DNA of 64,000 nt from positions 5,362-69,361 of the IMG/VR virus record IMGVR_UViG_3300037515_000354; one strand, given 5' to 3'. How positions within the stretch are numbered: position 1 is the stretch's first letter; each line of letters starts with the position of its first letter. Source of the stretch: a virus. Taxonomy: Duplodnaviria; Caudoviricetes. The notes under the pieces were generated by a model. It ran no database searches. It was not told the origin of the DNA and saw only the letters and a list, made by a program, of their open reading frames with translations. A program made the translations under genes and the position numbers. Positions 15,395-37,400 of this stretch are shown here, piece by piece.

Positions 15395-15768
15395 ACGCTC
15401 CTGTAGAAATCAGCGGGTACTGCCCGGCGTGCGGACATGGGTCCCTCGTGATCTACCCGGCACCTCTCAACGCCGTGCCGATATGGGTCATGTGCTGCTG
15501 GCCCGACTGCCCCCGTCCGACTGCCGCGCACGAAATCCTCGCCGACCGGGAGACGGAGCACATCGTCGACCTCGGAACGGAAGGGTTCACGCTCCGGCAT
15601 CCCCTGCGCGAGCGCCTGGACGATGCGCTCATGGACTGCGACGTACATGCGCGACTGGCCGCCGGAGGCCCGCCCGCGAGCACCGGCCGGTTCCGGGTCA
15701 GGCTCCACACAGTGGAAGAGCCGGACGGCGTAGAGCTGACCTTCGAGCCACTGGAAGACCAGGAGTGA
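15391..15768 (+). CDS. Hypothetical zinc-finger protein (DUF6085-like)
   Basis: GYCPACG...VMCCWPDCPRPTAAHEILADRETEH. Confidence 0.7.
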   Translation: MNAPVEISGYCPACGHGSLVIYPAPLNAVPIWVMCCWPDCPRPTAAHEILADRETEHIVDLGTEGFTLRHPLRERLDDALMDCDVHARLAAGGPPASTGRFRVRLHTVEEPDGVELTFEPLEDQE

Positions 15769-15773
15769 TCACC

Positions 15774-18005
15774 ATGTCGGACAGCAACGATTTCCTGATG
15801 AGCGACGGACCCCCGGCGCCCGACCCCATGGACGTGCTCATGGCCGAGGACCGGCCGAGCAACGGACTCGACAAGCTGTACAAGAACAAACGCTATTACC
15901 TGCCGGACCCGGTCACCGGTCTGCTCCGCACCTGGACGCGCGTCACCACCATGGCCGAGACGACCAGTGATCTTTACGCACTGAACCTCTGGCGTATCCG
16001 CATGATGATCATCGGTCTGACCCGGAACCCGGAGCTGCTCGACGAACTACGGGAGCTGGACGAGTTCGACCCCGAGACCGGCAAGGGAAAGCTCGACCCC
16101 AAGCTGCACAAAGACAAGTTGAACAAGATCGGATTCCGGTCGCAGGATCTCGCCGGAGCCAAGGTGCCCGCCGGGTGGGGCACCCGCATGCACACCTGGA
16201 TCGAGAAGCTGTCCCGCGACGAGATCACTCTGTCCGAGGTGGAGGACAAGTACCGCGACGAGGTGACCGCGTGGCATGCCGCGATGCAGGGTGCGGAGCT
16301 GTCCGCCGTGCCCCATCTCATCGAGCGCCGGGTGTCCATTCCTGTGTACGGCACGGCTGGGACCTTGGACCAGATCGACCGTGTGCACCGGTCCCGGTCC
16401 ATCCGGCTCGGTAACCGGGTCGTCCGGCTCAACGCGGGTGACCACCTCGTGGGCGACGTCAAGGGGTTGGCCCTCACGGAGCGCATCCCTACTCCGGACG
16501 GCTGGGCGACCATGGGCGAACTCCGCACCGGTGACCAGGTGTTCGACGCGTACGGCACGCCGTGCAACGTGACCGAGAAGTCCCCGGTGAAGAGGATCGG
16601 AACGTACATCGTCCGGTTCGATGACGGGTCCTCCGTGGTGTGCGACCGTGAGCACATCTGGTGGACGGCTGCCGGATTCGGGACCAACGTGCGCCCTCCG
16701 TTCAAGCCGACTGCCAAGCCCGTATCAGAGATCATCAGTACGTTGCGGAACAGCAACGGGGCGCAGCACCGGGTTCCGGTGGCCGGTCCATTGGATCTTC
16801 CGGAATCCGATCTCCCCATTGATCCGTACCTCTTGGGGTGCTGGCTCGGGGACGGTGCGGTACGCGGTGGGACCATTCACAAGGGCCGCGATCTGTTCGA
16901 GATCCTGGAAGCTGATGGTCATTCGCTCGGGGTGGAACAGGACGACAAATCTGATCACTGTGTTGCACGCACAGTGATCGGCTTGACTACGCAGCTCCGG
17001 GCGGCTGGTTTGCTGCACAACAAGCACATCCCGGCCTACTACCTCCGGGCATCCGCCGGGCAGCGTGTGCGCCTGCTACAGGGCTTGATGGACACCGACG
17101 GGACATGGAACACCGCTCGGAATTCCGCCGCGTTCAGCACCACGGACAAGGCTCTCGCCGGACAGGTTGAAGAGCTGATGCTGTCCCTTGGGCAGCGTCC
17201 GCACGTGTCATACATGAAACGGCACGGGTACGGCTTGACCGTGGACTCATGGACGGTAGAGATCACCCCGGTTGATCTCAACCCGTTCCGGCTGCCCCGG
17301 AAGGCGGACCAGGCCGCCGCGTCCGTCAAGTCGGTGACCCGATCACGTCGTCGGGTGATCACCCAAGTACTTCCGGGCCCGGATGTCGACACGGCGTGCA
17401 TCGCGGTCGACTCCCCGACGCACACCTATCTGTGCGGGGACCGGATGATCCCCACGCACAACAGCGGCCGGGATCTTGACTACGGGTGGGGGGAGATCTC
17501 CATCCAGATGGCTCTCTACGCGCACGGCGCGCGCGAAGGGCTGGTTGCCCGCTGGGATCCGGACGCCGAGACAGCCGACCCGGACGACCCCGGGGCGTGG
17601 GTGTGGGAGGACATCGGCATACCCCCCAAGTCGATCAGACAGGATGTCGGAGTGGTCATGCACGTGCCCATCGGTGAGAAGACGTGCACCCTGCACTGGA
17701 TAGACCTCACCGAGGGCTGGAAGGCCGTACAGCTTTGCGACAACGTACGGGACTGGCGGAAGGCCAAGGGACTCCAGACTCCGTTCTCCATCGCCGAGGT
17801 GCCCACCGACGATCCGGGGTCCAGTCCCCGGGTGCGTGCGTCCAGTTGGCAGGAACGGTTCGCGTCGATCACGTCCAGGCCGCACGCCACGCTGCTGTAC
17901 CGGGAGTACCTCCGCGCCGGTGGGGTGCACGGCAGCCCTGAGGCGAACCGGCTCATCGCCATAGCGACCAAGCACCTGGAACAGCTCGAAGAGTCCAGCG
18001 CGTAG
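15774..18005 (+). CDS. PD-(D/E)XK (RecB/Cas4-like) exonuclease interrupted by an intein
   Basis: AGTLD...GDVK|SG...IQMALYA after removal of the intein. Confidence 0.88.
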   Translation: MSDSNDFLMSDGPPAPDPMDVLMAEDRPSNGLDKLYKNKRYYLPDPVTGLLRTWTRVTTMAETTSDLYALNLWRIRMMIIGLTRNPELLDELRELDEFDPETGKGKLDPKLHKDKLNKIGFRSQDLAGAKVPAGWGTRMHTWIEKLSRDEITLSEVEDKYRDEVTAWHAAMQGAELSAVPHLIERRVSIPVYGTAGTLDQIDRVHRSRSIRLGNRVVRLNAGDHLVGDVKGLALTERIPTPDGWATMGELRTGDQVFDAYGTPCNVTEKSPVKRIGTYIVRFDDGSSVVCDREHIWWTAAGFGTNVRPPFKPTAKPVSEIISTLRNSNGAQHRVPVAGPLDLPESDLPIDPYLLGCWLGDGAVRGGTIHKGRDLFEILEADGHSLGVEQDDKSDHCVARTVIGLTTQLRAAGLLHNKHIPAYYLRASAGQRVRLLQGLMDTDGTWNTARNSAAFSTTDKALAGQVEELMLSLGQRPHVSYMKRHGYGLTVDSWTVEITPVDLNPFRLPRKADQAAASVKSVTRSRRRVITQVLPGPDVDTACIAVDSPTHTYLCGDRMIPTHNSGRDLDYGWGEISIQMALYAHGAREGLVARWDPDAETADPDDPGAWVWEDIGIPPKSIRQDVGVVMHVPIGEKTCTLHWIDLTEGWKAVQLCDNVRDWRKAKGLQTPFSIAEVPTDDPGSSPRVRASSWQERFASITSRPHATLLYREYLRAGGVHGSPEANRLIAIATKHLEQLEESSA
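16464..17462 (+). mobile_element. Class 3 intein (333 aa) with LAGLIDADG homing endonuclease
   Basis: Starts GLALTERIPTPDGW, ends IPTHN|S; WCT triplet (EHIW, TACI, PTHN); LLGCWLGDG and LLQGLMDTDG. Confidence 0.92.
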
Positions 18006-18123
18006 GTTTACCGTGTGCTTATGCAATCTGTTGGTACTATGAACCTGCGGGCCGGTCCACGGGCCGTGACAACTGAATAGCCGGGCCCGTTGCGCTCCGC
18101 AAACACACCGGGTCCGGCGTCAG

Positions 18124-18196
18124 TCCTCCGTAGCTCAGTTGGCAGAGCACCGTCCTGTTAAGTCGGTGGCCGCTGGTTCGAGTCCAGCCGGGGGAG
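18124..18196 (+). tRNA. trnN: tRNA-Asn (GTT)
   Basis: Cloverleaf TCCTCCG/CGGGGGA, D arm GCTC/GAGC, loop CTGTTAA, T loop TTCGAGT; one U-U mismatch in the anticodon stem; no encoded CCA. Confidence 0.92.
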
Positions 18197-18252
18197 CGCA
18201 TCACACAACCCAACAAGCCCGCAGCCCGCAGCACACAGCAAAGGATCACAGC

Positions 18253-18801
18253 ATGACGACAGAGCAGAGCCCGCTCGACTTCCTCATGCAGGGAAGCTCG
18301 GTCGGCGCGCAGTTCCCCAAGGTCGGACACAGCTACTCCGGCACCATCGTCCAGATCGGCAAGGCCCGGCAGCAGACGGACCTGTCCACCAAGCAGCCGA
18401 AGTTCTTCGACGACGGCGTGACTCCCCGCATGCAGGTGCCGGTCACCCTGGCCACCGACGCGCGCGGAAAGTTCGTCCGCGAGGACAACAGCTCACCGTG
18501 GGAACTCCAGGACATCCCGGACGACGACGGCGTCCGTACCCTCTGGGTCGCGGCCGACATGCAGCGTGCCATCCGCGACGCGGTGGTGCAGGCCCGCAAG
18601 GACCACGGACTCAGTCCCGAACAGCTCAAGGGACCGGAGGTGGGCGGTCATCTCACCGTGACGCGTACCAAGTCCAAGGCCGCGAAGAAGGCCGGATGGT
18701 CCGGCCAGCACACCTTCGAGGCCGTCTACGTGCCGAAGGCCGCGAACGCGGGCGCCGACTCGATCATGGATGACCGCGACCCGTTCAGCAAGTCCGAGTA
18801 G
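18253..18801 (+). CDS. Putative single-stranded DNA-binding protein (actinophage type)
   Basis: FPKVGHSYSGTIV...QQTD...PKFFDDG..RMQVPVTL; acidic DDRDPF C-terminus; recombination neighbourhood. Confidence 0.7.
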   Translation: MTTEQSPLDFLMQGSSVGAQFPKVGHSYSGTIVQIGKARQQTDLSTKQPKFFDDGVTPRMQVPVTLATDARGKFVREDNSSPWELQDIPDDDGVRTLWVAADMQRAIRDAVVQARKDHGLSPEQLKGPEVGGHLTVTRTKSKAAKKAGWSGQHTFEAVYVPKAANAGADSIMDDRDPFSKSE

Positions 18802-18813
18802 CACACCCGGTCG

Positions 18814-18851
18814 TCAGCCCCCTACCGGAACCGAAGCCGGTGGGGGGCTGA
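18814..18851 (+). terminator. Imperfect hairpin after the SSB gene
   Basis: TCAGCCCC..ACCGG loop CCGGT..GGGGCTGA. Confidence 0.5.
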
Positions 18852-18973
18852 CTTACAGACAGGGTCCGGCACGGGGCACAACCGGTCCGCAGGACGTACG
18901 GGGGACCGGGGCGGGCCGCCGCGTAGGGCCACCTCCCACAATCGCGCCAGAGTGGCGCACAGGGATCTGAATC

Positions 18974-19261
18974 ATGAAAGCAGCGGTCATGACAGGAAAG
19001 CGAGCAGCACGGAAGGGCGACCCGTCGGAGAACATCGCACAGGCGCAGTACTGGCAGTCGATCAAGAACAAGTACCTCGCCGCTGGTCTCTGCAACGGAT
19101 GCTCCGGGCAGGCCGCGTACGGCCATCAGCTCGGGTTCAGCCGGGTGCACGATCCGTGTTCCGCGTGCCGTGGCATACAGGTGCCGGTCTCCCTGACCTA
19201 CCGGCACGGTGGCTGGGGGCAGCTCTGGCTCGACGACCACTTCGTCAAGGACGTGGGCTGA
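18974..19261 (+). CDS. Hypothetical zinc-binding protein
   Basis: CNGC...CSAC. Confidence 0.65.
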   Translation: MKAAVMTGKRAARKGDPSENIAQAQYWQSIKNKYLAAGLCNGCSGQAAYGHQLGFSRVHDPCSACRGIQVPVSLTYRHGGWGQLWLDDHFVKDVG

Positions 19262-19263
19262 CC

Positions 19264-19539
19264 ATGACCACCGACCGGCCGCGCGGCGGACGCCGCCCCG
19301 AGGAATTCCCGGAAGCGCGTGCGCGTGACGCGAAGATCATCGATCTGCTCCGCACGTACGGCGGGATGACCAGAAACGATCTCGCTACGAATCTGTACCT
19401 GGACGACCGCCCGAAGCTGGTCACCTACGCGCTGCACCGGCTCCGGCTCCGGGGCCTGGTGCACCACATCCCCAAAGGAAACGAGGGTCACGGTGTATGG
19501 GCCGTGACTGCCAAGGCACGACAGGAGCGAGGAGCATGA
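19264..19539 (+). CDS. Winged-helix DNA-binding protein
   Basis: IIDLLRTYGGMTRNDLA...VTYALHRLRLRGLV. Confidence 0.7.
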   Translation: MTTDRPRGGRRPEEFPEARARDAKIIDLLRTYGGMTRNDLATNLYLDDRPKLVTYALHRLRLRGLVHHIPKGNEGHGVWAVTAKARQERGA

Positions 19540-20030
19540 ACATGGTCAACTTGGGCCCGCTCTCATGCGGGGCATGGCTGGAGGTGTCCACCGCCGAGGG
19601 CCGCCGCCGTATCTGTGTGCTGGCCGCCGGTCACTACCGGGAGACCGAGGGACCGGCCGTCGGCGAGAATCCGTCCTGGCACACCGACTGTCTGGGGGCG
19701 GAACGAGCGTCCGAGCCGCTGGAAGGTCGCCACGGACTCAACCGCGAGGTACGTTGCGACGGCCGCGCGTGCTCCGTGTGGGCCGACTGGGCTGACGGAG
19801 CACACCCGTCCGAGGCGCCGGTCATGTCGTTCATGGAGAGCGTGATCCGCGCCGCTTCGGACGGCCCGGTCATGCCGCCGGTGGAGCTTCCGGCCTACGT
19901 GGCCAACGTGTCGTTCGACACGGCCGACGGGGAGCGCGTGGTGTCCGCCACGCTGTACGGTCCGGCGGAATTCCTGGCCACGGCCGTCGGTTCGATCACG
20001 GAAGCGTTCCGGGACGAGGTGGAGAAGTGA
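19536..20030 (+). CDS. Hypothetical protein
   Basis: GAGG RBS, ATGA overlap. Confidence 0.6.
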   Translation: MNMVNLGPLSCGAWLEVSTAEGRRRICVLAAGHYRETEGPAVGENPSWHTDCLGAERASEPLEGRHGLNREVRCDGRACSVWADWADGAHPSEAPVMSFMESVIRAASDGPVMPPVELPAYVANVSFDTADGERVVSATLYGPAEFLATAVGSITEAFRDEVEK

Positions 20031-20356
20031 GGTGGCTACGGATCTTCCAGCGCAAGTCGCCGGTTCTGCCTGTCCAGTTGCTCACCGTGGAGGAGCCGTT
20101 CAGCCACGAGGAGCTACAGCGGATCTTCGACAAGAACCGGAACGCGACCGGTACGTCGTACCGGGTCGGCACTCATCCGTCCGGCGGTCCGCTTCCGGTG
20201 GAGGCTCAGGTGTTCCTCCGCGTCATGGGCGAGGATCTGTCCGGCGCGCGGAACCTGCTCCGAGGCATGCCCCCCACGGAACGGGCGATCTTGCTGTTCT
20301 GGATAGAGCAGATGGCCGGACTCGTGTACGAAGTCGAAGAGCGGGAGGGTATCTGA
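20027..20356 (+). CDS. Hypothetical protein
   Basis: GTGA overlap. Confidence 0.6.
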   Translation: MRWLRIFQRKSPVLPVQLLTVEEPFSHEELQRIFDKNRNATGTSYRVGTHPSGGPLPVEAQVFLRVMGEDLSGARNLLRGMPPTERAILLFWIEQMAGLVYEVEEREGI

Positions 20357-20358
20357 TC

Positions 20359-21054
20359 ATGGCTAGGTACCACACCACGGGCAGGGCCGTGTGCAATGTC
20401 CAGTGCGGGAAGTGGATCTACGGAACCCCGGACAGGGAGTTCGTACCCGACGGGTCGTACGACTTTCACCGGAAGTACAGTCCCGGCTCCCCGTTCATCG
20501 TTTTCAAACCGATCGTTCATCGCTCGTGGCTATCGCGCGCCGTACTCCGCGTCCGGCGTTCCCGTTGGATCGAGGTGGACGTTCCGGCGAGTGGGGGTTC
20601 TGGAGACGGCCATTGGAACCAGAAGTGGCGCGTGTCCGTGACGAAGTGCAGGGGTGAGACGGACACAGACATCCTCGACGGTGCGTACGAGCACGTGCGC
20701 AACGAACTGAAGATCATTGAGACGCTGATCCAATGGCGCCGGGACATCCCCGTTGCAACGCGTCCCGTTGCATGGTCGTACCGTCTCCCGGACGGGACGC
20801 ACCCCCCGGTCGTGTATTTCATGCGCAACGGAACGCGCGTCAAGATCGGTACGACGTCTCACATACGCAACAGGGTGCGGCGTCTTGCGTTGCGTCCCGA
20901 AAACGTTGCACTCATTACCCCGGGGGACCGGGACGCGGAGCACGCGTTTCACCAGCGTTTCGCAACGTACCGGGTCGGAGACACCGAGTGGTTCGACGAG
21001 ACGGGGACGCTCCGCGATTTCATCGAGACGGAGAGGCTGGGACAGCGGTCATGA
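20359..21054 (+). CDS. Protein with C-terminal GIY-YIG-like (T5orf172/MUG113) domain
   Basis: VVYFMRNGTRVKIGTTS..RNRVRRL...EHAFHQRFATYRVGDTEWF. Confidence 0.75.
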   Translation: MARYHTTGRAVCNVQCGKWIYGTPDREFVPDGSYDFHRKYSPGSPFIVFKPIVHRSWLSRAVLRVRRSRWIEVDVPASGGSGDGHWNQKWRVSVTKCRGETDTDILDGAYEHVRNELKIIETLIQWRRDIPVATRPVAWSYRLPDGTHPPVVYFMRNGTRVKIGTTSHIRNRVRRLALRPENVALITPGDRDAEHAFHQRFATYRVGDTEWFDETGTLRDFIETERLGQRS

Positions 21055-21860
21055 GCACTGAGAAGAAGACCGACAAGGCTCTGAAGTGGATCGAGTGGCT
21101 GCCCCGTGCGGGATGGCCCGTCGTAGCGGTGATCGTCATGGTGATGTGTGCCCCCGGTGAACACGCTCTGGCCGTGCTGGCCGGTTGGGAGGAGCACCTT
21201 GCGTGGGGCATGCCTGCCTGCCTGGTCGCGTACGCGGGCATCGCGGCGTCCGTGGCTACCAGGCGCAGTAAGGGTGCCCAGGGACGGGCCACGGCCATCG
21301 TGGGCGCGTTCACGTCACTCGCCGCTGCCATGGCCGCGCAGCCAGTCAGTCACCTGTTCGTGACCGGCCACTGGGACGCGTCTCCGTCCCCGGTGTGGCT
21401 GGTTGTTGCAGTGAGCTGTGTCCCGCCTCTCGTGCTGGGACACCTCATGCACGTTGCGGCGTCTCACGGACGGTCTGCTGAGACTCCCGCCGAAACCGTT
21501 GCAGCCGTGGCTGAGACATCGTCTGACGCAAGTATCGAGTCGCTCCGGGCCCCTCTTGCGGTGCCGAAGAAGCGTCTCACCAAGACTCCGGCCCGTCCCG
21601 CACTGCCTACCCCCGAGACGCCGGATGAGACGAAGACTCTTCTCACCGTTGCAGAGGCCGCAGCCGTTGCGTCTCAGGTACGCGGTGAGACCGTCTCGTC
21701 GTCAACCGTCCGGACGTGGAAACACAGGGGGCGTCTCACTCCCGCGCTCGACGAGGACGGGACGCTGTTCGAGCGGGACGCCGTTGTAGCCGCTGCAACG
21801 CGCAACGGAAAGAACCCGGCACCTGCAACTGACGATCACCACACCACACAGGAGAAGTAG
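21051..21860 (+). CDS. Spd-like membrane protein (DUF2637/SpdA-like) with C-terminal MerR-type HTH
   Basis: About 4 hydrophobic helices, CAPGEHALAVLAGW, VSCVPPLVLGHL; LLTVAEAAAV...TVRTWKHRGRL. Confidence 0.65.
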   Translation: MSTEKKTDKALKWIEWLPRAGWPVVAVIVMVMCAPGEHALAVLAGWEEHLAWGMPACLVAYAGIAASVATRRSKGAQGRATAIVGAFTSLAAAMAAQPVSHLFVTGHWDASPSPVWLVVAVSCVPPLVLGHLMHVAASHGRSAETPAETVAAVAETSSDASIESLRAPLAVPKKRLTKTPARPALPTPETPDETKTLLTVAEAAAVASQVRGETVSSSTVRTWKHRGRLTPALDEDGTLFERDAVVAAATRNGKNPAPATDDHHTTQEK

Positions 21861-21863
21861 ATC

Positions 21864-22397
21864 ATGACCACACCCGTCAAGAAGACCGCCGCACCGCGCA
21901 AGACCGCCGCCCGCAAGACCGCTGCACCGGCCGCACCGTCCTCCCCGCCGGGGACGCCGGTGAGCCAGGGCAACACACAAATGCACCGCCGGGGCCGGGG
22001 CCAGTTCGCCGCGTGGGCCGACTCGGTGCAGAACCTGGACATCACCACGGTCGACGAACTGTACGAGTTCTGCGAGGACACCCGTACCTTCTGCCAGGAG
22101 GCATCCTCCCTGCTTGAGGTGCTGGCCAAGCAGTTCGACCACAACCTCAAGCTGACCGAGAAGAAGAAAGACAGCAAGTGGTCGTGGCTGGGGGTCTCGT
22201 TCGGGGGCCGGTTCAAGAAGCCGGTCAAGGAGCTGCACAAGGTCAGCGATTCGTTCGAGGCCGCCGCGAAGCACGCGTACGCCTGCTGGATCGAGTACGA
22301 GAAGGCGTCCCTCGAAATGCAGGAAGAGGTACGTGCCGCAGAGATCGCGGCCCGTCACGGCAACAAGGGCGCAGGGGGTTTCGATCATGACTTCTGA
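21864..22397 (+). CDS. TraA-like protein upstream of TraB
   Basis: Helical protein directly 5' of the FtsK-like gene, as in Streptomyces plasmid tra loci (positional inference). Confidence 0.45.
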   Translation: MTTPVKKTAAPRKTAARKTAAPAAPSSPPGTPVSQGNTQMHRRGRGQFAAWADSVQNLDITTVDELYEFCEDTRTFCQEASSLLEVLAKQFDHNLKLTEKKKDSKWSWLGVSFGGRFKKPVKELHKVSDSFEAAAKHAYACWIEYEKASLEMQEEVRAAEIAARHGNKGAGGFDHDF

Positions 22398-24474
22398 GGA
22401 CATGCCCAGCGCCACCGGGGGACAGCGCAGGGGAGGGACACGCCGCGTCAACATCAACCGGAGGACAAGTGACACAGGTGACAGGCTCATGCCCTACCTT
22501 GTCCCGGTGGCGCTGTGTCTGTCCGCCATGCCGGTGTCCTTGATCGGACACTGGCAGTGGGGTGACGACCCGCTCATGGTCGCCCTCATGTCCCTCGCGT
22601 CCGCCGGTCTGTCTCTGTTCACCTACTCGACGTGGGGAACACGGCGCCGGACAACGAGGACAACGGCCGCCGTGTTCGTCCTCGCCGTGTCCCTGTGGAT
22701 GACGTTCGCCGTGGCGACGGATCCGTTGTCCCCCGCGATGCTGAACGCGTGGATATACGGCACCGTTGTCCTGTCCGCCGCGTGGGGCATCCGTCACGCG
22801 TCCATGTCCCGTCACCACGAGGAGGACATCGCGGACGGACCGAAGGACACGTTCCTTGACCGGCTCGGGGGGCTGTTCGAGTCCCTGTCCGCCAAGGAGA
22901 TCAAGAGCCACGGGAACCGGATCACCGCCGAGTACGCCATACCTCCGGGTTCCGCCACGGTGGGCGACGTCCAGGCGGAGCTGAAGCGCGTGGCCGGTGC
23001 TCTCGAAGTGCCGGTGTCCGCCGTGACGATCACGGAGTCCAAGCCCAACCACGTGATTTTCTCGGTCCAGCCGGGCGACCCGCTCGGTTCCGGCCCGGTC
23101 ATGTGGCGCGGCCCGTCTCTGCCCGGCCGGTCCGTGGCCGATGGACCGCTCAGGTTCGGGTGGCGCATGAATGACACCCCGGTCGGCTTGTGGGTGTGCG
23201 GAGACGAACGGCTCGACCGCCAGCTCTCTCACATGCTCGACGTCGGCATGACCGGTTCCGGGAAGTCCGAGACCCTGTCGACGATCATCATCGAGGGCCG
23301 GTCGCGTGTCGACTTCGTGCCCGTGGTGGCCGACCCCAGGAAGTTCGACCAGGCGTACGGTGACATCGCCGACACCCTCGCCCTGTCAGCGGCTGACGAG
23401 GAGCAGACACTACGCCTGATCAGCAATTTCCCCGCTGTCGCCGCGTACCGGGCCAAGCTGCTCGGATCACTGACAAGGGCTGACGGGGGCCGTGGTTACA
23501 AGCAGTGGGTCCCCGAGTGCTGGACCCTGCACAAGATCCCGCTCGTTTTCATGGTGATCGACGAGGCCGCTTCGGTGATCTCCCGGAACGACGAGTTCAA
23601 CGACGGCGTACGGCTCTTCAGGTCCCTGGGGATCTTCATGGTGGCCGGTCTTCAGACCGCCATCGGCTCGGACATCGACCGCAAGATCAGGGACCAGTTC
23701 GGCCAGGCACTCGCGCACGGTTGCAAGTCCCCGCTCGACGCCGGGTTCGTCCTCACGGACGGCACCCTCGCCGCCGGGGCCGACCCCACAAAGTGGCAGG
23801 CCAACAAAGCGGGCGCGTTGTTCGCCGAGCTGACCGGCACCCCCAAGGACCAGTGGCACCTGGAATGCCGGGCCTTCCTCACGGACCACCCGGACGACCG
23901 CACCGTGAAGCGCCGCGCGCTCGAAGCATCCCGCCCCACCTGGGCCGTGCTCGACGAGGGCACCGCCTTCCACCTCGGACGGGGCCTGACCATGCCGGAC
24001 AGTGCGCTTCCGATCAAGGGCGCCTTCACCCCGGTCACCATGCCCGAGACAACCGCACCGGTCGAGCCCGAGACCCGCACCAGGAGCGAACACGCCCCGC
24101 CCATGGACGAGGAGTATGAGCACGTGGACATCACACAGAAGATCCCCCGGAACCCCGCGCTGGTCAGCGAGGCGTTCGAATCCGACCGACCGGCCGAGCC
24201 GTGGCCCCAGGCTGAAGCGCAGGAAGCCTTTGATCTACGGCTGGAAACCCTCGTGGCCGACGATTACGACACGGTCCGGCTGGTCGACTTCAGCGACGTT
24301 ATCGCCGAGGTGGGCCGTTCCCGTGCATGGGGATACGACCAGCTCACCCGGCTCGAACGACAGGGAGTGATCAAGTCGGACCCTACCGGAAGCCGCGCCT
24401 ACCGGGTTGTCACCGATCGTCATCCCCGTGTCACCAGCCTGAGTCACGGGATAAACGGGGCGGAAGTGATCTAG
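22387..24474 (+). CDS. traB: TraB-like FtsK/SpoIIIE DNA translocase
   Basis: N-terminal TM helices, Walker A GMTGSGKS, Walker B MVIDEAA, RSLGIFMVAGLQ, C-terminal winged helix GRSRAWGYDQLTRLERQG. Confidence 0.78.
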   Translation: MTSEDMPSATGGQRRGGTRRVNINRRTSDTGDRLMPYLVPVALCLSAMPVSLIGHWQWGDDPLMVALMSLASAGLSLFTYSTWGTRRRTTRTTAAVFVLAVSLWMTFAVATDPLSPAMLNAWIYGTVVLSAAWGIRHASMSRHHEEDIADGPKDTFLDRLGGLFESLSAKEIKSHGNRITAEYAIPPGSATVGDVQAELKRVAGALEVPVSAVTITESKPNHVIFSVQPGDPLGSGPVMWRGPSLPGRSVADGPLRFGWRMNDTPVGLWVCGDERLDRQLSHMLDVGMTGSGKSETLSTIIIEGRSRVDFVPVVADPRKFDQAYGDIADTLALSAADEEQTLRLISNFPAVAAYRAKLLGSLTRADGGRGYKQWVPECWTLHKIPLVFMVIDEAASVISRNDEFNDGVRLFRSLGIFMVAGLQTAIGSDIDRKIRDQFGQALAHGCKSPLDAGFVLTDGTLAAGADPTKWQANKAGALFAELTGTPKDQWHLECRAFLTDHPDDRTVKRRALEASRPTWAVLDEGTAFHLGRGLTMPDSALPIKGAFTPVTMPETTAPVEPETRTRSEHAPPMDEEYEHVDITQKIPRNPALVSEAFESDRPAEPWPQAEAQEAFDLRLETLVADDYDTVRLVDFSDVIAEVGRSRAWGYDQLTRLERQGVIKSDPTGSRAYRVVTDRHPRVTSLSHGINGAEVI

Positions 24475-24480
24475 GGGGGC

Positions 24481-24586
24481 GTGTCAGTGGGTGTTTGTCA
24501 GCCCTTGTCACACCCGCCGACACGGCCTCCCACCTGTATATCCGCGTTCTGATATCCACGGCTGACACCGTCCGGCCGTGTCACAC
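24481..24586. repeat. Cluster of six TGTCA/GACA-type short repeats downstream of traB (clt-like candidate)
   Basis: gtgtcag 24481, ttgtcag 24495, ttgtcac 24505, ccgacac 24517, ctgacac 24562, gtgtcac 24578. Confidence 0.45.
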
Positions 24587-24606
24587 CACCAACGGAGGAG
24601 ATCCAC

Positions 24607-24858
24607 ATGAAGACTGCACGGCTCGACAAGATCGTGAAAGAGGTCATCTGGTGGACCCATGCTCTCGTCGCCCTGCCCTTGATCTACTTGGGCGCTGGAC
24701 TCGTCCCGGGTGACCGGGTCAACCTGAACGTGATCGGATCACTGATCATTATGGCGGTGTTCGTCGCCCTTGATCTGGCGATCACCGTTCCGTGCTCAGC
24801 ATGGCGCCGGAAGATCACGCGTCCCGTTCTCGCGCCGGTCCACCGGAGCGAGTGGTGA
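24607..24858 (+). CDS. Small two-TM membrane protein (Spd-like)
   Basis: GGAGGAG RBS; two hydrophobic helices. Confidence 0.7.
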   Translation: MKTARLDKIVKEVIWWTHALVALPLIYLGAGLVPGDRVNLNVIGSLIIMAVFVALDLAITVPCSAWRRKITRPVLAPVHRSEW

Positions 24859-24959
24859 GGCGTCGGGCGTACAACCGGGTCAAGCTCATCGTGATCGTCC
24901 TCAGCTTCCTGGCCGCCGTTCTGATCGCGGACGCCATGGAACTGACCAACCACCCGTAG
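24855..24959 (+). CDS. 34-aa single-TM peptide
   Basis: GTGA overlap; LIVIVLSFLAAVLIA. Confidence 0.5.
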   Translation: MRRRAYNRVKLIVIVLSFLAAVLIADAMELTNHP

Positions 24960-24967
24960 GGGACACC

Positions 24968-25375
24968 GTGAACGACCGTAAGAAGGAGCTGAACGTCCGT
25001 AAGGCGGACGAGATCAGCTACCGGCCCAGCGGGCTTCCCGCAGTGCCGGAAGAGACGTACGTGGACCAGCAGGGCCGGGTGATCGAAGTCCGGCACGTGC
25101 AGAGCCCGCCGGAGTACCGGGGGGATGATCTTCTCCGGCGGTTCGTACCGTATTTCGTACTGGCGACCATGAGTATGATCCTTCTCGGCGCACTGCTCGC
25201 GCTGCTCGGTATGATCATTCCCCCGCTGCTCGCACTGGTGATCACTCTCGTAGGCTCGCTGGTGTCGATCATCCTCAGCCTGGTCGTAACGATCATTGCG
25301 GGGGTGGTCGCTGCCGTCGGCATCGGGTACCTCCAGACGATCAATGCGCGGGCCGATTGGGAAAATGATCACTGA
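24968..25375 (+). CDS. Membrane protein with long hydrophobic C-terminus (SpdD-like)
   Basis: Hydrophilic N-terminus then more than 60 hydrophobic residues. Confidence 0.6.
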   Translation: MNDRKKELNVRKADEISYRPSGLPAVPEETYVDQQGRVIEVRHVQSPPEYRGDDLLRRFVPYFVLATMSMILLGALLALLGMIIPPLLALVITLVGSLVSIILSLVVTIIAGVVAAVGIGYLQTINARADWENDH

Positions 25376-25394
25376 GTACAGGAGTTGATCAAGA

Positions 25395-25517
25395 ATGACC
25401 GGACGGCACCGGCGCCGGTCCAGCAAGATCATAGCCACCGTGAAAGGGATGATCCTTTTCACGGTGGCTCTGTTTCTGATCTTGGGAGCGCTTTGGATCT
25501 TCCTGGCGAGCAAATGA
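25395..25517 (+). CDS. 40-aa single-TM peptide
   Basis: GGAG RBS; basic N-terminus plus ILFTVALFLILGALWIFL. Confidence 0.5.
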   Translation: MTGRHRRRSSKIIATVKGMILFTVALFLILGALWIFLASK

Positions 25518-25561
25518 TCTACATGGATATGCGGTGATCAAGGAATGCCCATAATGCCCGA

Positions 25562-25618
25562 TTCGCTCCAACCAATGTTCGTGATCACGCCCCTGACCTG
25601 CACAAATCCCTAACCCAA
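25562..25618 (+). repeat. 57-bp element, inverted copy of 46254..46310 (52/57 identical)
   Basis: Manual alignment. Confidence 0.9.
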
Positions 25619-25733
25619 AGGTCCTGGTACGCGGGCCCCAGGGAGGGGGTTGAGGCCGCCAGACGGACGCACAGGACGTTCATGTAGCACCGTTTGTATC
25701 ATGATTTTATGCATCGTCATGCATGACCACCCG

Positions 25734-25763
25734 AGCCGCCGGTGATCTTCCCGGCGGCTTTTG
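25734..25763 (+). terminator. Intrinsic terminator-like hairpin
   Basis: AGCCGCCGG-tgatcttc-CCGGCGGCT followed by TTT. Confidence 0.65.
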
Positions 25764-26534
25764 ATCTTCCCTTACGCGCGCGCGTAGACACGCGTGCCTG
25801 CCCGCTCCTCAAGATCCAGCAAACTTTTTAAAGAATCTTGCTCTACCCCATTGCGTACCCCCGAACGGGGGAGCTTAATGGAGTCAGTACAACAGCACGG
25901 CGCAGGGAGGGTCCAACCCCCTCCAACCGATCAAGAGTCACCCCGGGTACCTACGGAGACCGGCAAAGGCTCAAGATCACAAGGACCGCCCCGACGGGGG
26001 CGGGCGCCACTCCCCTCCAGGGCCGCGAGGTACAGGGGGGCGGGGACCGGATCTCCGCAAGCAGCATTGCAGCCGGGCCCGGAGTGATCACCGGGTACAC
26101 AAACTGACGATCAAGAGAAGCCTAGCCGCTGGACGAAGGGGCGGGGCCACAAGATCGCCGAGGACATACGGCACTGACGATCTTGAGGAACCAATCCGGA
26201 CGTACTGGAATCCGCGAAGCAACTCGGGTTAATCACCCGGCCAGTAGGCCGCCGATGAAGATCCCCGCCAATCCTCGCGGGTCATACAGCACCGGGCAAC
26301 CGGATGCATACGAGGATCACACGCTTCGCAGGGTCTGCGGTCAAACACCCTGCTACGGCATTGAGGCGGTAGACGCGGCCGGTAGCCGCGACCGAGAGGC
26401 GCCCAGCGGGTTCAACCCCCGCCCCTGCCACTGATCACCGCACGCCAGAAACGATGGGTCAAGGGCCTGGGAAACAGCGGCGCACGGCGGTCCCCCTACA
26501 CCACCCACACCCACACCCACACGAGGAGCCGGTC

Positions 26535-26768
26535 ATGAGCGACACCCGAGAGATCACCGGCAAGGGCTTCACCTACGTAGTCACCCGCCGGTTCCTGAAC
26601 AAGGAGACCGGCCGGATGCGCGTCCGGGTCCGGATCTACCAGGGCATGATCGCTTTCGGCACCCCCAAGGTCAACGAATACCGCGACTACGACAACATGC
26701 ACGACGGCGACGCGAAGTTCCTCGCACACATCAACAAGATCACCGCGCACGTCAACTCGAAGGGCTGA
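26535..26768 (+). CDS. Hypothetical protein
   Basis: GAGGAG RBS. Confidence 0.75.
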   Translation: MSDTREITGKGFTYVVTRRFLNKETGRMRVRVRIYQGMIAFGTPKVNEYRDYDNMHDGDAKFLAHINKITAHVNSKG

Positions 26769-26773
26769 TCATC

Positions 26774-26971
26774 ATGGAGACCAACCAGTACGCGACTGAG
26801 TCCAACACCTCCGTCTGGTACGAGGTGCAGCGCCAGTCCGGCAGCAACTACGGCTGGATCACTCTCTCCGACCACGACACCCGCGAGCAGGCAGAGAGCG
26901 CCATGGATGCCCGGACGGGTTCGGTCGCCGACCCCAGCTACCGGATCCGCCGGGTGCGCGGACAGGCATAA
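26774..26971 (+). CDS. Hypothetical protein
   Basis: Stop TAA abuts hammerhead 1. Confidence 0.7.
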   Translation: METNQYATESNTSVWYEVQRQSGSNYGWITLSDHDTREQAESAMDARTGSVADPSYRIRRVRGQA

Positions 26972-27031
26972 GGCGAAACGCCCCTCGGGGCGTCCGCCGG
27001 GGGTGCCTCCCCGGCGCTGATGAGCCAGGCA
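26972..27031 (+). ncRNA. Type II hammerhead ribozyme 1 (predicted cleavage after C26994)
   Basis: GGC-GAAA-CGCCC/GGGCG-TC-CGCCGGGG/CCCCGGCG-CTGATGA-GCC; loop TGCCT pairs with tail AGGCA. Confidence 0.92.
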
Positions 27032-27051
27032 CACGGACACAGGGAGCGATC

Positions 27052-27246
27052 ATGACCAGCATCAACCAGGGCCCGAACGACGACTACCGCCGCACCGGCC
27101 AACCGGTCACGTACCTCACCGCCGACGGCACCCGGCGGGTGTCCGGCACCGTCCGGTGGGAAGACGCGAACGGCGTCAAGGTGGATGTACCCGGACAGCA
27201 GTTCGGAGCGTACGTGTCCCACGCGTTCGTCACCTTCACACGCTGA
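27052..27246 (+). CDS. Hypothetical protein
   Basis: GGGAG RBS between hammerheads 1 and 2. Confidence 0.75.
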   Translation: MTSINQGPNDDYRRTGQPVTYLTADGTRRVSGTVRWEDANGVKVDVPGQQFGAYVSHAFVTFTR

Positions 27247-27250
27247 TCAA

Positions 27251-27310
27251 GGCGAAACGCCCCTCGGGGCGTCCGCCGGGGGTGCCTCCCCGGCGCTGAT
27301 GAGCCAGGCA
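27251..27310 (+). ncRNA. Type II hammerhead ribozyme 2 (cleavage after C27273)
   Basis: Identical to copy 1. Confidence 0.92.
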
Positions 27311-27330
27311 AACGAACCGAGGAGCCGGTC

Positions 27331-27531
27331 ATGGCACTTACCCCCGGAACACAGATCACCGTCCTGCTGGGGACCGAGCCGGAGCAGTTCACGGTCGAGA
27401 GTGTCGACAAGGACTGCACGGTGCATGTGCGGTCGAACGCTGCGCCGTACAGCCTGGTCATGTGGCCGACTGACTACCGCCTCGGTGCCACGCTGCACAA
27501 GATGGGCCAACCGGGTACCAAGGGTTGGTAA
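27331..27531 (+). CDS. Hypothetical protein
   Basis: GAGGAG RBS. Confidence 0.75.
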   Translation: MALTPGTQITVLLGTEPEQFTVESVDKDCTVHVRSNAAPYSLVMWPTDYRLGATLHKMGQPGTKGW

Positions 27532-27550
27532 CTGATCTCCGTCTGATCAA

Positions 27551-27610
27551 GGCGAAACGCCCCTCGGGGCGTCCGCCGGGGGTGCCTCCCCGGCGCTGAT
27601 GAGCCAGGCA
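27551..27610 (+). ncRNA. Type II hammerhead ribozyme 3 (cleavage after C27573)
   Basis: Identical to copy 1. Confidence 0.92.
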
Positions 27611-27624
27611 CGGAAGGAAAGATC

Positions 27625-27771
27625 ATGGATGCCGCAACCGAAGCGATCAGTTTCGCCGCCGCCGCGTGGTCGCTCGAACTGATCGACCACTACCCCGGCA
27701 CCGACGCCGACCGTGACGACATGATCCGCAATCTGGCCGCGTACGGTCCGGCCATCACCGAGAGGGACTGA
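27625..27771 (+). CDS. 48-aa hypothetical protein (not in ORF track)
   Basis: AAGGAAAG RBS; MDAATEAISF...ITERD. Confidence 0.6.
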   Translation: MDAATEAISFAAAAWSLELIDHYPGTDADRDDMIRNLAAYGPAITERD

Positions 27772-27776
27772 TCCAA

Positions 27777-28007
27777 ATGACCATGGACACCACCATCCGT
27801 ACCGGCGACGTTGTCGTGATCTTCTACGACGCCGACTCGCTGCCCGGAACGGTCTGCAAGATCGTAAAGTCCCGCACCGGCAACGTCCGCCGGGTCGGGA
27901 TCGCTCCCGACGGCGCGGACATCGTGGCCTGGTTCATCCCGGTGCCCGACATGTTCGACGGGGCCTGTCTGGTCTCGGTGGGGGGTTCCACCGTCGCGTA
28001 CTGGTAA
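27777..28007 (+). CDS. Hypothetical protein (SH3-like beta pattern)
   Basis: IRTGDVVVIF...PGTVCKIV. Confidence 0.65.
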   Translation: MTMDTTIRTGDVVVIFYDADSLPGTVCKIVKSRTGNVRRVGIAPDGADIVAWFIPVPDMFDGACLVSVGGSTVAYW

Positions 28008-28009
28008 GA

Positions 28010-28073
28010 GGCGAAACGCTCCCTCCGGGGAGCGTCCATCGGGCATGGTCCCCCGGTGCTGATGAGCCGGACC
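28010..28073 (+). ncRNA. Type II hammerhead ribozyme 4, divergent (cleavage after C28036)
   Basis: Same core; compensatory stems CGCTCCC/GGGAGCG and CATCGGG/CCCGGTG; loop TGGTC pairs with tail GACCA. Confidence 0.92.
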
Positions 28074-28089
28074 ACGAGGAGGAGCGATC

Positions 28090-28287
28090 ATGAGCATTAC
28101 ACTCACCAAATTCAAGATCCAAGACGTTGTGATCGACAACGACTGGAACGACCCCCCGGATCTCGGAATGATCGTCGACATTCCGAACGACGGTAACGAC
28201 CGCCGTTTCGAGATCTTCTGGCAGGACGGAACGCATACGTTCGAGCGCCTGTCTGGTATGGCCGACTTCGGCCACGTGAGTGTGTGA
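28090..28287 (+). CDS. Hypothetical protein
   Basis: GAGGAGGAG RBS. Confidence 0.75.
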   Translation: MSITLTKFKIQDVVIDNDWNDPPDLGMIVDIPNDGNDRRFEIFWQDGTHTFERLSGMADFGHVSV

Positions 28288-28369
28288 TCTCCGCTCGGGT
28301 GCGCGTCTCGTACGTGCACCCCCTGAGGCTGATCATCCATACCTCACTCCGACTACCACAGGAGCGACC

Positions 28370-28570
28370 ATGTTCACGATCGTTTACCGCACGCAGCTCG
28401 ACAGCACCCTGACGCGACTGGAGACCGACAACCTGTACGACGCGATGTTCGTGCTTCAGGACGTTGCGGTCCGCCGGGACGCCGAACTGATCGACTTCAG
28501 CCCTGAGCTGGACGGAGCGCTGGACGGCCTGCTCGACCACGTCCGGCTGTCCGTCGCTCGCGCGCTCTGA
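28370..28570 (+). CDS. Hypothetical protein
   Basis: AGGAG RBS. Confidence 0.7.
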   Translation: MFTIVYRTQLDSTLTRLETDNLYDAMFVLQDVAVRRDAELIDFSPELDGALDGLLDHVRLSVARAL

Positions 28571-28611
28571 TCAAGGACAGTAAAGCTGATCTTCGACAAG
28601 AGGAGACCATC

Positions 28612-28809
28612 ATGAACGTCCTCATCATGCACGTGTTCTACCCCGGCATGACGCAGTCCCGCCCGGTGTCCGTGGGCGACCCGGTGACGGATGCCGGTTA
28701 CACCGGCTACGTCTGGACCGTGGACATCAACGACGTGAACGCGGACCCGGTCCGTACGCACTGCTCGCGTCTGTCGGAAGACCCGGTCGGCCAACTGTCC
28801 GTCCGTTGA
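28612..28809 (+). CDS. Hypothetical protein
   Basis: AGGAGAC RBS. Confidence 0.7.
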   Translation: MNVLIMHVFYPGMTQSRPVSVGDPVTDAGYTGYVWTVDINDVNADPVRTHCSRLSEDPVGQLSVR

Positions 28810-28951
28810 TCAGCAGCTCCGGCCGGTGTCAGAGCCGACCGGAGCACTAGGCGCGGGTCACGGGCCGGTCATCCCCCCGTCACTCCGTTGCCAGCACAAC
28901 GACCGGCCGGATCCCCCGGCCGGTCCACCTCGTTCAACCGCAGGAGCGATC

Positions 28952-30145
28952 ATGCAACTCACTCTCCGTAAGGGCACTCTCCAGGATCTGGCCACCGAGC
29001 TGGCCGAGCAGCAAGAGCGCAAGAACGATCTCGTCGTCCCCGCGTCCAAGCTGTGGTCCCACAACGGCAACGTGATCGTTGCCGGTGGCCGCCCCGAGCG
29101 GATCGACTCCGACGGAGTCACTCCCGCCGGGAACCTCGAACTGACCCCGTCCGGCGTGTTCGACACCGGCATGGTGGCCAAGCTGTCGCAGCCCGGCCGT
29201 CCGGTCGGCCGCGCGTTCATCCGTGGGCTGCGCGAGACCGGCCGTACGGACATCATCGACGGCGTGTACAACGGATTGCTGCACGGTAGTGCCGATCTCG
29301 CGGTGCAGGGCGACGCCCGGAAGTTCTTCGTCCGCACCTTCACGGGTCAGGGCGACGGACCGGGCTACGCCCGCGCACTGCTCAGTGACAGCTACCGGCC
29401 GATCGACAACTGGGACGTGCTCGCGACCGTGATCGACGGTCTCACGTCCGCCGGATTCTCCGGCCACGTGGTCCGGCAGGCCGATCTGTCGGACGACAAG
29501 ATGTACCTCCGCGTGTCGGTGCCGGAGATCACGGCGCTCGCGCCTGGTCTGTTGCACGGCTACACCTCGCCTTACGGCGGAGCGCGCGGTGCGGACAACC
29601 CGGTCGTCGAGGCCGGGATCGTCATCACCAACTCGGAGACCGGGGGCGGTGCCTTCACGATCACTCCCGAGCTGGTCGTCCAGATCTGCTCGAACGGGAT
29701 GACGATCAAGCGGGACATGATCCGCAAGACGCATCTCGGGTCCAAGCTCGACGAGGGGCACATGAAGATCAGTCAGCGGACCCTGGCGGCTAACCGTGAG
29801 CTGGTCGCGTCTCAGACCCGCGACGCCATCGAGACGTTCCTGGACGAGGGGTACATGAACCGCGTGCTCCAGCAGATCGAAGCGGGCTCGGACGAGAAGA
29901 TCGCCGACGTCGAGAAGACGATCGAAGTGATCACTCAGCGTCCGGCGTTCGGCAAGGCGGACATGAAGGGCCTTCTCGCCACGTTCATGGACGGAGGCGA
30001 CCGCACGCGCGGCGGTCTGGTGCAGGCGGTCACCGCGTACTCGCAACAGATCGACGACGCCGACCGGGCGTACGAGATGGACGCGGATGCGCTTCCGGCC
30101 GCCGGGTTCAGCAACGTGACCGGCCTGGTTCCCGCCGGACGCTGA
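28952..30145 (+). CDS. DUF932-like protein
   Basis: RALLSDSYRPIDNWDVL; ITNSETGGGAF...QICSNGM. Confidence 0.75.
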   Translation: MQLTLRKGTLQDLATELAEQQERKNDLVVPASKLWSHNGNVIVAGGRPERIDSDGVTPAGNLELTPSGVFDTGMVAKLSQPGRPVGRAFIRGLRETGRTDIIDGVYNGLLHGSADLAVQGDARKFFVRTFTGQGDGPGYARALLSDSYRPIDNWDVLATVIDGLTSAGFSGHVVRQADLSDDKMYLRVSVPEITALAPGLLHGYTSPYGGARGADNPVVEAGIVITNSETGGGAFTITPELVVQICSNGMTIKRDMIRKTHLGSKLDEGHMKISQRTLAANRELVASQTRDAIETFLDEGYMNRVLQQIEAGSDEKIADVEKTIEVITQRPAFGKADMKGLLATFMDGGDRTRGGLVQAVTAYSQQIDDADRAYEMDADALPAAGFSNVTGLVPAGR

Positions 30146-30146
30146 A

Positions 30147-30208
30147 TGATCGGAGGCAGCATGGTGGCCGGTCCCTCCGGGGGCCGGTTGGCCACGGGTT
30201 ACCGATCA
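30147..30208 (+). ncRNA. Unknown 62-nt structured intergenic motif, copy A
   Basis: Terminal stem TGATCGG/CCGATCA and inner stem CCGGTCCC/GGGGCCGG; repeated at 30635. Confidence 0.6.
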
Positions 30209-37367: not shown

Positions 37368-37400
37368 ACGCAGACCACCACCACTACGTAAGGATCACCC

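Follow-up and report, generated by a model that had tools for sequence, protein, structure and literature searches.

Positions 21051-25517 of the DNA stretch studied here (hereafter the window) probably hold a Streptomyces-type cassette for the transfer of double-stranded DNA (dsDNA), situated inside the early, plus-strand operon of a non-integrating siphovirus. The window is 64,000 nucleotides (nt) long and corresponds to bases 5362-69361 of the 69,361-bp IMG/VR virus record IMGVR_UViG_3300037515_000354 (class 'linear'). Gene calling by codon usage gave 113 genes, of which g34 to g41 all lie on the plus strand and are tightly packed or overlapping. The first gene of the cassette, g35 (21051-21860), encodes a 269-amino acid (aa) membrane protein with a C-terminal helix-turn-helix of the MerR/excisionase type. 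It is followed by g36 (21864-22397), encoding a 177-aa soluble protein that matches TraA distantly, and the stop codon of g36 overlaps the start of g37 (22387-24474), which encodes a TraB of 695 aa. Seven copies of (G/T)TGTCA(G/C) at 24407-24584, to which no strand is assigned, form a candidate clt site. Downstream lie g38 (24607-24858; a small membrane protein of 83 aa that resembles Spd only in position and architecture), g39 (24852-24959; a 35-aa peptide with a single transmembrane segment), g40 (24968-25375; a 135-aa protein with a long C-terminal hydrophobic region), and g41 (25395-25517; a 40-aa peptide with a single transmembrane segment and the weakest gene call, coding score 9.3). A first-pass annotation of the window had described a TraA-TraB cassette of the Streptomyces plasmid type with flanking membrane genes, and this description is upheld by the profile matches of TraB and TraA and by the transmembrane segments of the neighbouring proteins.

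g37 encodes a full-length TraB homologue

The g37 protein is a full-length TraB homologue and has the TraB domain order of transmembrane helices, FtsK-like motor, and winged helix. It matches the NCBIfam profile plasmid_TraB (NF041214) with E 3.6e-107 and 359 bits, covering profile positions 4-634 of 639, and tblastn aligns it at 25-27% identity over 80-93% of its length to TraB of pSN22, to the TraBs of other small Streptomyces plasmids, and to the pJV1 homologue. Its match to Pfam FtsK_SpoIIIE reaches E 0.02 only, and a PF01580 search of a Streptomyces genome misses the two TraB-type genes of that genome.

In an AlphaFold model built with 19 homologues, four N-terminal helices (residues 31-140) precede an alpha/beta domain predicted with confidence (~160-535), which a disordered linker connects to a unit of three helices followed by two strands (608-674). 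The best structural matches of the central domain are FtsK motor domains bound to dsDNA (6t8o and 2ius; E ~1e-14, TM-score ~0.6), and the Walker A (GMTGSGKS, residue 287) and Walker B (FMVIDE, residue 388) motifs are both intact. When folded alone, the C-terminal 100 residues reach a predicted local distance difference test score above 90 across the core, and Foldseek matches them to winged-helix domains only; the E-values are weak (0.01-0.1), in line with a length of 65 residues. Foldseek did not rank FtsK-gamma first for this domain, and a specific kinship with FtsK-gamma is at most tentative; the winged-helix fold stands. The profile match, the model, the structural matches, and the Walker motifs agree with the first description of g37 as a protein with transmembrane segments, an FtsK ATPase, and a winged helix. 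Comparison with an 87%-identical relative gave a ratio of nonsynonymous to synonymous substitution rates (dN/dS) of 0.17 at an unsaturated dS of 0.47, which indicates that g37 is under purifying selection.

The TraB of the window belongs to a clade of phage-sized replicons

Searches for related database proteins returned 45 sequences at 35-97% identity and one weak match at 30%, and the longest of their contigs measure 54-91 kb. Relatives that are 69-97% identical occur in NCBI, JGI, and Logan data on contigs of 57-89 kb. TraB homologues are found on 43 IMG/VR viral contigs, most of them 54-99 kb long, and on 54-96-kb contigs of Streptomyces isolate assemblies, and the sole match in a metagenome scan was a 3.6-kb fragment. 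A tblastn search with TraB against 50,697 phage records, a collection that may lack records near the window, found no homologue at E 1e-5, and megablast of the cassette region against the same records gave no match.

We placed these proteins in a tree from a quick LG+G4 search that was rooted on Streptomyces FtsK paralogues and left out three truncated rows. All TraB-type proteins split from FtsK and the FtsK-like outgroup with a Shimodaira-Hasegawa-like approximate likelihood ratio test (SH-aLRT) value of 99; the comparison of TraB with FtsK that had been proposed as a check groups g37 with TraB, apart from FtsK. Within the TraB-type proteins, the window TraB belongs to a 39-sequence clade (SH-aLRT 100, stem length 0.75), whose members are viral contigs, phage-like replicons, and unlabelled database homologues only. 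The TraBs of pSN22, pJV1, pRL1, and pCQ4 fall outside this clade.

Members of the clade share a gene order. A multi-transmembrane protein (mostly 250-430 aa) and a soluble protein (~135-220 aa) precede TraB, and three small proteins follow it: a 60-95-aa protein with one or two transmembrane segments, a 33-48-aa peptide, and a 124-170-aa protein with one or two transmembrane segments. The order of multi-transmembrane protein, soluble protein, TraB, and small transmembrane proteins recurs in ~30 independent viral or plasmid loci, and the early genes around the cassette (g23-g33 and g42-g51) are syntenic among related IMG/VR contigs. Transmembrane proteins are enriched 3' of traB (57 of 146 downstream genes versus 69 of 632, p = 3e-14), and the spd region of pSN22 behaves likewise.

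The gene preceding the cassette, g34 (20359-21054, plus strand), had been counted as part of the module at first, and we exclude it. It encodes a 231-aa soluble protein in which no transmembrane segment was detected, and its nuclease-like T5orf172/MUG113 (GIY-YIG-like) C-terminus matches Pfam PF13455/PF10544 (E 6e-5) and phrog_8604. Since tblastn matches to g34 are limited to 2 of the 43 related viral loci, we treat it as a neighbour and not as a member of the module.

TraA and the membrane proteins of the cassette

The match of g36 itself to the NCBIfam profile plasmid_TraA (NF041213) has an E-value of 0.0075 and lies below the 80-bit cut-off. Across the g36 family, plasmid_TraA is the top NCBIfam match for all 16 of 16 members (best E 4.6e-13), and hhalign aligns the family profile to the annotated TraA of pCQ4 with a probability of 80% and E 1.5e-5. 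Judged by these profile comparisons, g36 is a divergent TraA, as the first-pass annotation had proposed. Its dN/dS is 0.35 (versus locus L018).

The g35 protein has two strong hydrophobic segments at its N-terminus (about four by eye) and a MerR-like helix-turn-helix (phrog_2474, E 5e-7). We found 311 homologues; almost all of those with names come from Streptomyces, and PF13411/PF12728 is present in many. A homologue lies 5' of traB in 17 of the 43 viral loci. The protein had been labelled SpdA-like. SpdA proteins are defined by a length of 117-163 aa, a conserved N-terminal region with DNA binding, and an SRDD/E motif, and the 12-bp palindrome CGTCACGTGACG, called sps, occurs in one to three copies in or beside spdA (PMC4170104). 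By comparison, g35 is 269 aa long and has its transmembrane segments at the N-terminus and its helix-turn-helix at the C-terminus. The SRD[DE] motif occurs in none of g30-g42, and the window has no copy of CGTCACGTGACG with zero or one mismatch; with two mismatches there are four copies, none near the module, where 11.3 are expected. Size, domain order, and the absent motif and palindrome rule out g35 as SpdA, and the label is withdrawn, although the architecture of membrane segments plus helix-turn-helix itself stands. SpdB2 is an integral membrane protein with four transmembrane helices that binds dsDNA and interacts with TraB, and it has homologues on conjugative plasmids (PMC4447253). The architecture of g35 may be considered analogous to SpdB2, to which it is closer than to SpdA; the sequence of g35 has no similarity to SpdB of pSN22 (E 4).

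Inside g35, at 21459-21738, GCGTCTCA is present four times on one strand (seven copies in the window), and CGTTGCA repeats occur nearby. With GCGTCTCA lying in the gene for a membrane protein that binds DNA, the layout is reminiscent of SpdA and sps; the sequence is unrelated.

The four small membrane proteins reported downstream of traB are borne out, as g38-g41 each have one strong hydrophobic segment. None of them has a family match in Pfam, NCBIfam, or PHROG-type profile searches. A homologue of g38 is located right after traB in five viral loci (61% identity in L020). L020 also has a homologue of g39 (55% identity), and in many loci an open reading frame of 33-48 aa fills the g39 slot. 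Homologues of g40 are found in L019 and L020, and its slot is occupied clade-wide by a protein of 124-170 aa with one or two transmembrane segments, whereas no homologue of g41 was found in the related loci. In many cases the spd genes of different plasmids are not similar in sequence (PMC4170104), so architecture and position are the only usable criteria, and we use 'Spd-like' for these membrane genes as an analogy.

The cassette resides in a tailed-phage genome of probably ~86-88 kb

The first-pass annotation had placed the module in a tailed-phage genome, which the tail module of the window and the head module of a collinear relative confirm. A minus-strand block at 46-64 kb comprises a siphovirus tail and lysis module with genes for a head-tail adaptor, tail terminator, major tail protein, chaperone, 1447-aa tape measure protein, and minor tail proteins, along with an amidase + LysM endolysin. 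The contig ends within the head-tail adaptor gene, and the head genes fall outside the window. Completeness of the contig is roughly 65-80% (CheckV rating 65%); genes are cut at both ends, there is no terminal repeat, and the end-to-end reading frames do not join.

A relative from IMG/VR, G461 (88,083 bp), is collinear with the entire contig and has 81 proteins in common with it in identical order. Between the map points of the two contig ends, G461 holds ~17 kb that encode a large terminase, a portal, and a fusion of protease and major capsid protein, which completes the virion gene set together with the tail and lysis genes of the window. The break point of G461 differs from that of the contig, and each contig bridges the break of the other; the full genome is therefore probably circular or circularly permuted and ~86-88 kb in size. 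The frames at the contig ends fail to join because the ~17-kb segment is missing, which rules out a linear genome as the cause. A remoter relative, G463, is complete and has a 127-bp terminal repeat.

The tail module (g101-g113) is syntenic with that of the Rhodococcus equi phages Shagrat, Madraxi, Jflix2, and REQ1 at 32-66% protein identity, with Shagrat genes 13-25 corresponding to the tail block of the window, and the capsid-protease fusion of Shagrat is also found in G461. Shagrat differs from the window in encoding a serine integrase as well as an immunity repressor, and none of these four phages, all of which are within the 50,697-record collection, matched TraB. Mosaicism across host genera is strong: the tail is nearest to R. 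equi phages (at most 66% identity), and the polymerase and helicase are nearest to Actinoplanes and Streptomyces phages.

Lifestyle and host

A search of the contig and of five relatives, three of which are at least 90% complete, detected neither a tyrosine nor a serine recombinase, and we therefore take the element to be non-integrating. The first-pass annotation had seen no integrase and had asked for a search of the rest of the contig; extending the search to the whole contig and these relatives did not change the result. Its iteron array is likewise confirmed: nine copies of AGGGGCCCA, in both orientations, form an iteron-like array at 4371-4576 in the gap upstream of a primase/helicase gene (4621-6639, minus strand), and all nine copies of AGGGGCCCA in the window are inside this array. 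The ParB-like pair fares less well, as the call is weak and comes down to a ParB-like PHROG match (E 9e-11) and DUF6551 for g13 only, and ParA was not detected in the contig or four relatives. Of the proposed phage-plasmid, the missing integrase and the iteron array stand, whereas the missing ParA and the weak ParB-like call speak against it, and a plasmid prophage is at most weakly indicated.

Close TraB relatives occur in NCBI assemblies on contigs of 84-89 kb, and g35 homologues that are 61-75% identical and labelled Streptomyces mirabilis are located on 53-87-kb contigs, which together suggest carriage in cultured strains. Homologues of g35 reach up to 80% identity in named Streptomyces genomes. 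No LysB/cutinase was detected among the four lysis-region proteins scanned, which is a weak argument against a mycolic-acid host. Based on the g35 homologues, the presence of the TraB clade in Streptomyces assemblies, and the lack of a detected LysB, the host is most likely a Streptomyces.

Candidate clt repeats at the 3' end of traB

The clt regions have 8-bp direct repeats that are recognised by the cognate TraB (PMC4447253; PMC4170104), and the clt of pJV1 has nine CCGCACA(C/G)(C/G) repeats (PMC3583192). The seven copies of (G/T)TGTCA(G/C) (KTGTCAS) at 24407-24584, six on the plus strand and one inverted, lie across the final 70 nt of traB and the spacer of 132 nt between traB and g38. The 69-kb contig has 30 copies of KTGTCAS, 7 of which are located within these 172 bp, its densest cluster (Poisson P ~3e-9 per 120-bp interval). 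The traB stop codon is also the place that clt sites occupy on plasmids, and we consider this cluster a candidate clt site with good support in silico.

The relatives have arrays at the traB stop that are often much neater and vary with the TraB allele. For example, traB is followed by eight TGTCAG(A) units ~12 bp apart in L021, by five or six CGTGATCAC(ACC) in L040, and by three copies of CGTCCGGGGGA in L020/G461. The repeat after traB is CTGACA in pCQ4 and pRL1 and GTGCGCAC in chromosomal traB copies of Embleya and Yinghuangia. In 15 of 40 loci, the segment at the traB stop is among the top 5% of segments in its own locus when these are ranked by their most repeated hexamer; as a positive control, the same method recovers eight CGCACA in pSN22, which matches the pJV1 repeat. 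Between G461 and the window, backbone proteins are 40-87% identical and g38-g40 are 55-61% identical, whereas TraB is 41% identical and the repeat is CGTCCGGGGGA instead. Divergence of both TraB and the repeat on a shared backbone is the pattern expected if the two were exchanged together, and TraB seems to be replaced jointly with its site.

Other repeats occur in the 5' part of traB (22500-22900), where TGTCC is found 10 times versus 0.7 expected, and at 22649-22771, where two copies of GGACAACG are followed by two copies of CGTTGTCC in an inverted arrangement. This cluster of TGTCC, GGACAACG, and CGTTGTCC could be a second site for TraB or a regulator, or a codon artefact of the transmembrane region. 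The four copies of GCGTCTCA in g35 and the GGACAACG/CGTTGTCC repeats in traB were weighed as clt candidates and not retained, no equivalent having been examined in the relatives.

Comparison with plasmid transfer systems and plasmid-phages

The cassette resembles the TraB/clt systems of pSVH1, pIJ101, pSN22, and pJV1, with full-length TraB homology at 25-27% identity over ~90% of the protein. In common with small Streptomyces plasmids, it combines transmembrane helices, FtsK motor, and winged helix in TraB with traA directly 5', repeats where traB ends, and genes for small membrane proteins 3', and the order traA-traB-spd of pSN22 and pJV1 matches that of the window. It differs from these plasmids in that the carrier is a ~86-kb tailed phage and not a small Rep plasmid, SpdA and sps are lacking, a gene for a membrane protein with helix-turn-helix (g35) precedes traA, and TraB belongs to a separate clade. 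A GntR gene is located upstream in pSN22, pJV1, and pCQ4, whereas none was found in g30-g33 of the window.

Similar combinations of transfer and virion genes exist on other phage-sized replicons. pCQ4 (NC_019307) is of phage size and has a full set of virion genes together with traA-traB, which are directly upstream of its terminase, portal, and capsid genes, with traB adjoining the terminase gene. Unlike the window, pCQ4 encodes ParA/ParB along with a tyrosine recombinase and a GntR regulator; its TraB groups with those of small plasmids, and it has almost no backbone genes in common with the window. The 98.8-kb plasmid pS1D4-14.2 (NZ_CP041606) encodes its own terminase, portal, capsid, and tape measure proteins. 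Together with 92-96-kb Streptomyces contigs (S. africanus, NRRL S-455, NPDC), it belongs to the TraB clade of the window (35-36% identity over the full length), and this group also has phage head and tail genes, repeats after traB, and genes for a multi-transmembrane protein and a ~190-aa soluble protein upstream. pS1D4-14.2 differs from the window in having ParA and a tyrosine recombinase, and the group shares few backbone genes with it (polymerase, helicase, and homologues of g29 and g80). The database entries for its members are plasmids or bacterial contigs, and 'hypothetical protein' is the annotation given to the TraB homologue of pS1D4-14.2. An actinomycete integrative and conjugative element (AICE) was rejected as the identity of the window, as no tyrosine or serine recombinase was found, phage genes are present on both sides of the module, and the contig has no bacterial DNA.

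The first-pass annotation had seen the novelty in the whole module, which cannot be maintained given that pCQ4 pairs traA-traB with phage head genes. In addition, the literature refers to pZL12 as a 'plasmid-phage' whose transfer locus has been characterised (Zhong et al. [quoted passage not shown] SpdB2 homologues on actinophages have already been proposed to help spread phage DNA (PMC4447253). What seems previously undescribed, as far as we found, is that phage-borne TraBs form a separate clade with many members, a conserved cassette of its own, and repeats that are specific to the TraB allele. We likewise found no earlier report that TraB homologues are absent from the 50,697-genome phage collection.

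Other features of the window

Four type II hammerhead ribozymes (Rfam RF02276) are encoded on the plus strand at 26971-27034, 27250-27313, 27550-27613, and 28009-28075, with scores of 55-58 bits versus a gathering score of 37. Each is located between small operon genes just 3' of the transfer cassette. The gap between g41 and g42 (25518-26534) comprises 1 kb without a convincing gene and has several GC-rich hairpins, none of which matches Rfam at the gathering score. GATC directly precedes many start codons at 18000-30200 (gatcATG at g34, g36, g37, g44, g46, g48, and g51), and GATC/TGATCA is over-represented around 25100-25600.

Upstream of the cassette, g28 (15765-18005) encodes an exonuclease (phrog_466, E 7e-54) that is split by a segment matching 'terminase large subunit' PHROGs. 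The inserted segment is 38% identical to part of the 836-aa terminase family protein of pCQ4, and it fits an intein shared with the pCQ4 terminase. A packaging gene at g28 was rejected, as the terminase PHROG matches are confined to the segment shared with the oversized terminase of pCQ4. The window also has two plus-strand tRNA genes, Asn(GTT) at 18124-18197 and Arg(ACG) at 37296-37369.

Discussion

By analogy with plasmid TraB systems, we favour, with fair but limited confidence, a role of the cassette in the virion-free spread of phage DNA between or along hyphae. TraB hexamers would insert into the membrane via their N-terminal helices, and the C-terminal winged helix would recognise the repeats as a clt site. 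The FtsK-like motor could then pump the unprocessed dsDNA phage genome into a neighbouring hypha or across septal cross-walls. In this process g35 would be a membrane-anchored DNA binder that, together with the small membrane proteins, fills the role of the Spd proteins in plasmid spreading. Without virions, the phage genome might thus travel between mycelia or along them, whether it resides in the host as an extrachromosomal element, which has been reported for pZL12, or is in the course of an infection.

Several observations weigh against virion-free spread. The 359 bits of g37 are below the curated NCBIfam equivalog cut-off of 800 bits, so it is a divergent homologue that need not have the same function. 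The small membrane proteins resemble no Spd protein in sequence, and a GntR-type TraR, the Kil-Kor partner, was not seen (no Pfam match in g30-g33, the four upstream proteins scanned). The repeats of the window are irregular in spacing and degenerate, with a 5-nt core, whereas those of L021 and L040 form neat arrays. With neither ParA nor integrase found, a stable carrier state, in which conjugation would pay off, is not shown, and the tail proteins, which are most like those of R. equi phages, leave a mycelial streptomycete host unproven.

The same apparatus could be used in the lytic cycle only, with a virulent or pseudolysogenic phage pushing replicating DNA through cross-walls and thereby enlarging the infection focus, and no conjugation between strains. 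This we regard as rather unlikely, even though the cassette is in the same plus-strand block as the replication genes, no dedicated repressor was found, and neither integrase nor ParA was detected in the contig or in complete relatives. The carriage in cultured strains suggested by the 84-89-kb contigs of close relatives in NCBI assemblies, and again by the S. mirabilis-labelled g35 homologues (61-75%) on 53-87-kb contigs, argues against purely lytic use, as does the sister subclade, which occurs on a plasmid record and in isolate genomes on contigs of 92-96 kb.

Conservation largely refutes the idea that the cassette is a passenger without a role in the phage life, either a recently captured fragment of a plasmid or AICE or an assembly chimera, and we consider this highly improbable. 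Its position and gene order are recurrent in 43 independent IMG/VR contigs with syntenic flanks (g23-g33 and g42-g51), the cassette is under purifying selection as judged from dN/dS, and no integrase, Rep, or attachment-site remnants were found beside it. The best named relatives are plasmid genes, as would be expected of a passenger, yet the phage-borne TraBs form their own long-stem clade (SH-aLRT 100) and are not nested among small-plasmid TraBs. Exchange of the cassette is indicated by the 41% identity of TraB between collinear genomes whose neighbouring proteins are at 55-78%, which also fits a passenger. A different function of an FtsK-like protein, such as interference with host septation or sporulation, or exclusion of a second phage or incoming plasmid, appears very unlikely too. 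The profile phrog_1358 does place FtsK/SpoIIIE-like phage proteins under 'host takeover'; however, the full TraB architecture, the TraA neighbour, the allele-specific repeats in the clt position, and the Spd-like genes fit a transfer apparatus and not a lone ATPase.

Taking virion-free spread as the preferred interpretation, a broader and more tentative picture is possible, in which the window represents a large uncultivated clade of siphoviruses of Streptomyces-like hosts with genomes of 54-99 kb that lack integrase and ParA. These viruses may have held a TraB lineage for a long time, with co-evolving clt repeats and fixed membrane partners, and may routinely move as naked dsDNA through cross-walls and hyphal contacts. 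If true, this would be a second, virion-free transmission route for a virus of a multicellular bacterium, distinct from sporadic hybrids of plasmid and phage like pZL12, in which TraB derives from small plasmids.

The mycelia of streptomycetes are divided into compartments, and little is understood of the way in which phage infection or lysogeny advances through a colony. The principle had been shown for pZL12, and the window adds evidence that the arrangement is not a one-off: phage-sized replicons carry at least 39 TraB sequences that group in a clade apart, in which the cassette is conserved and the repeats differ with the allele, and a set of genomes and a predicted binding site are now defined for direct tests. 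A phage with its own TraB and clt could spread from cell to cell without lysis, and it could mobilise host DNA via clt-like sites, which would blur the boundary between transduction and conjugation.

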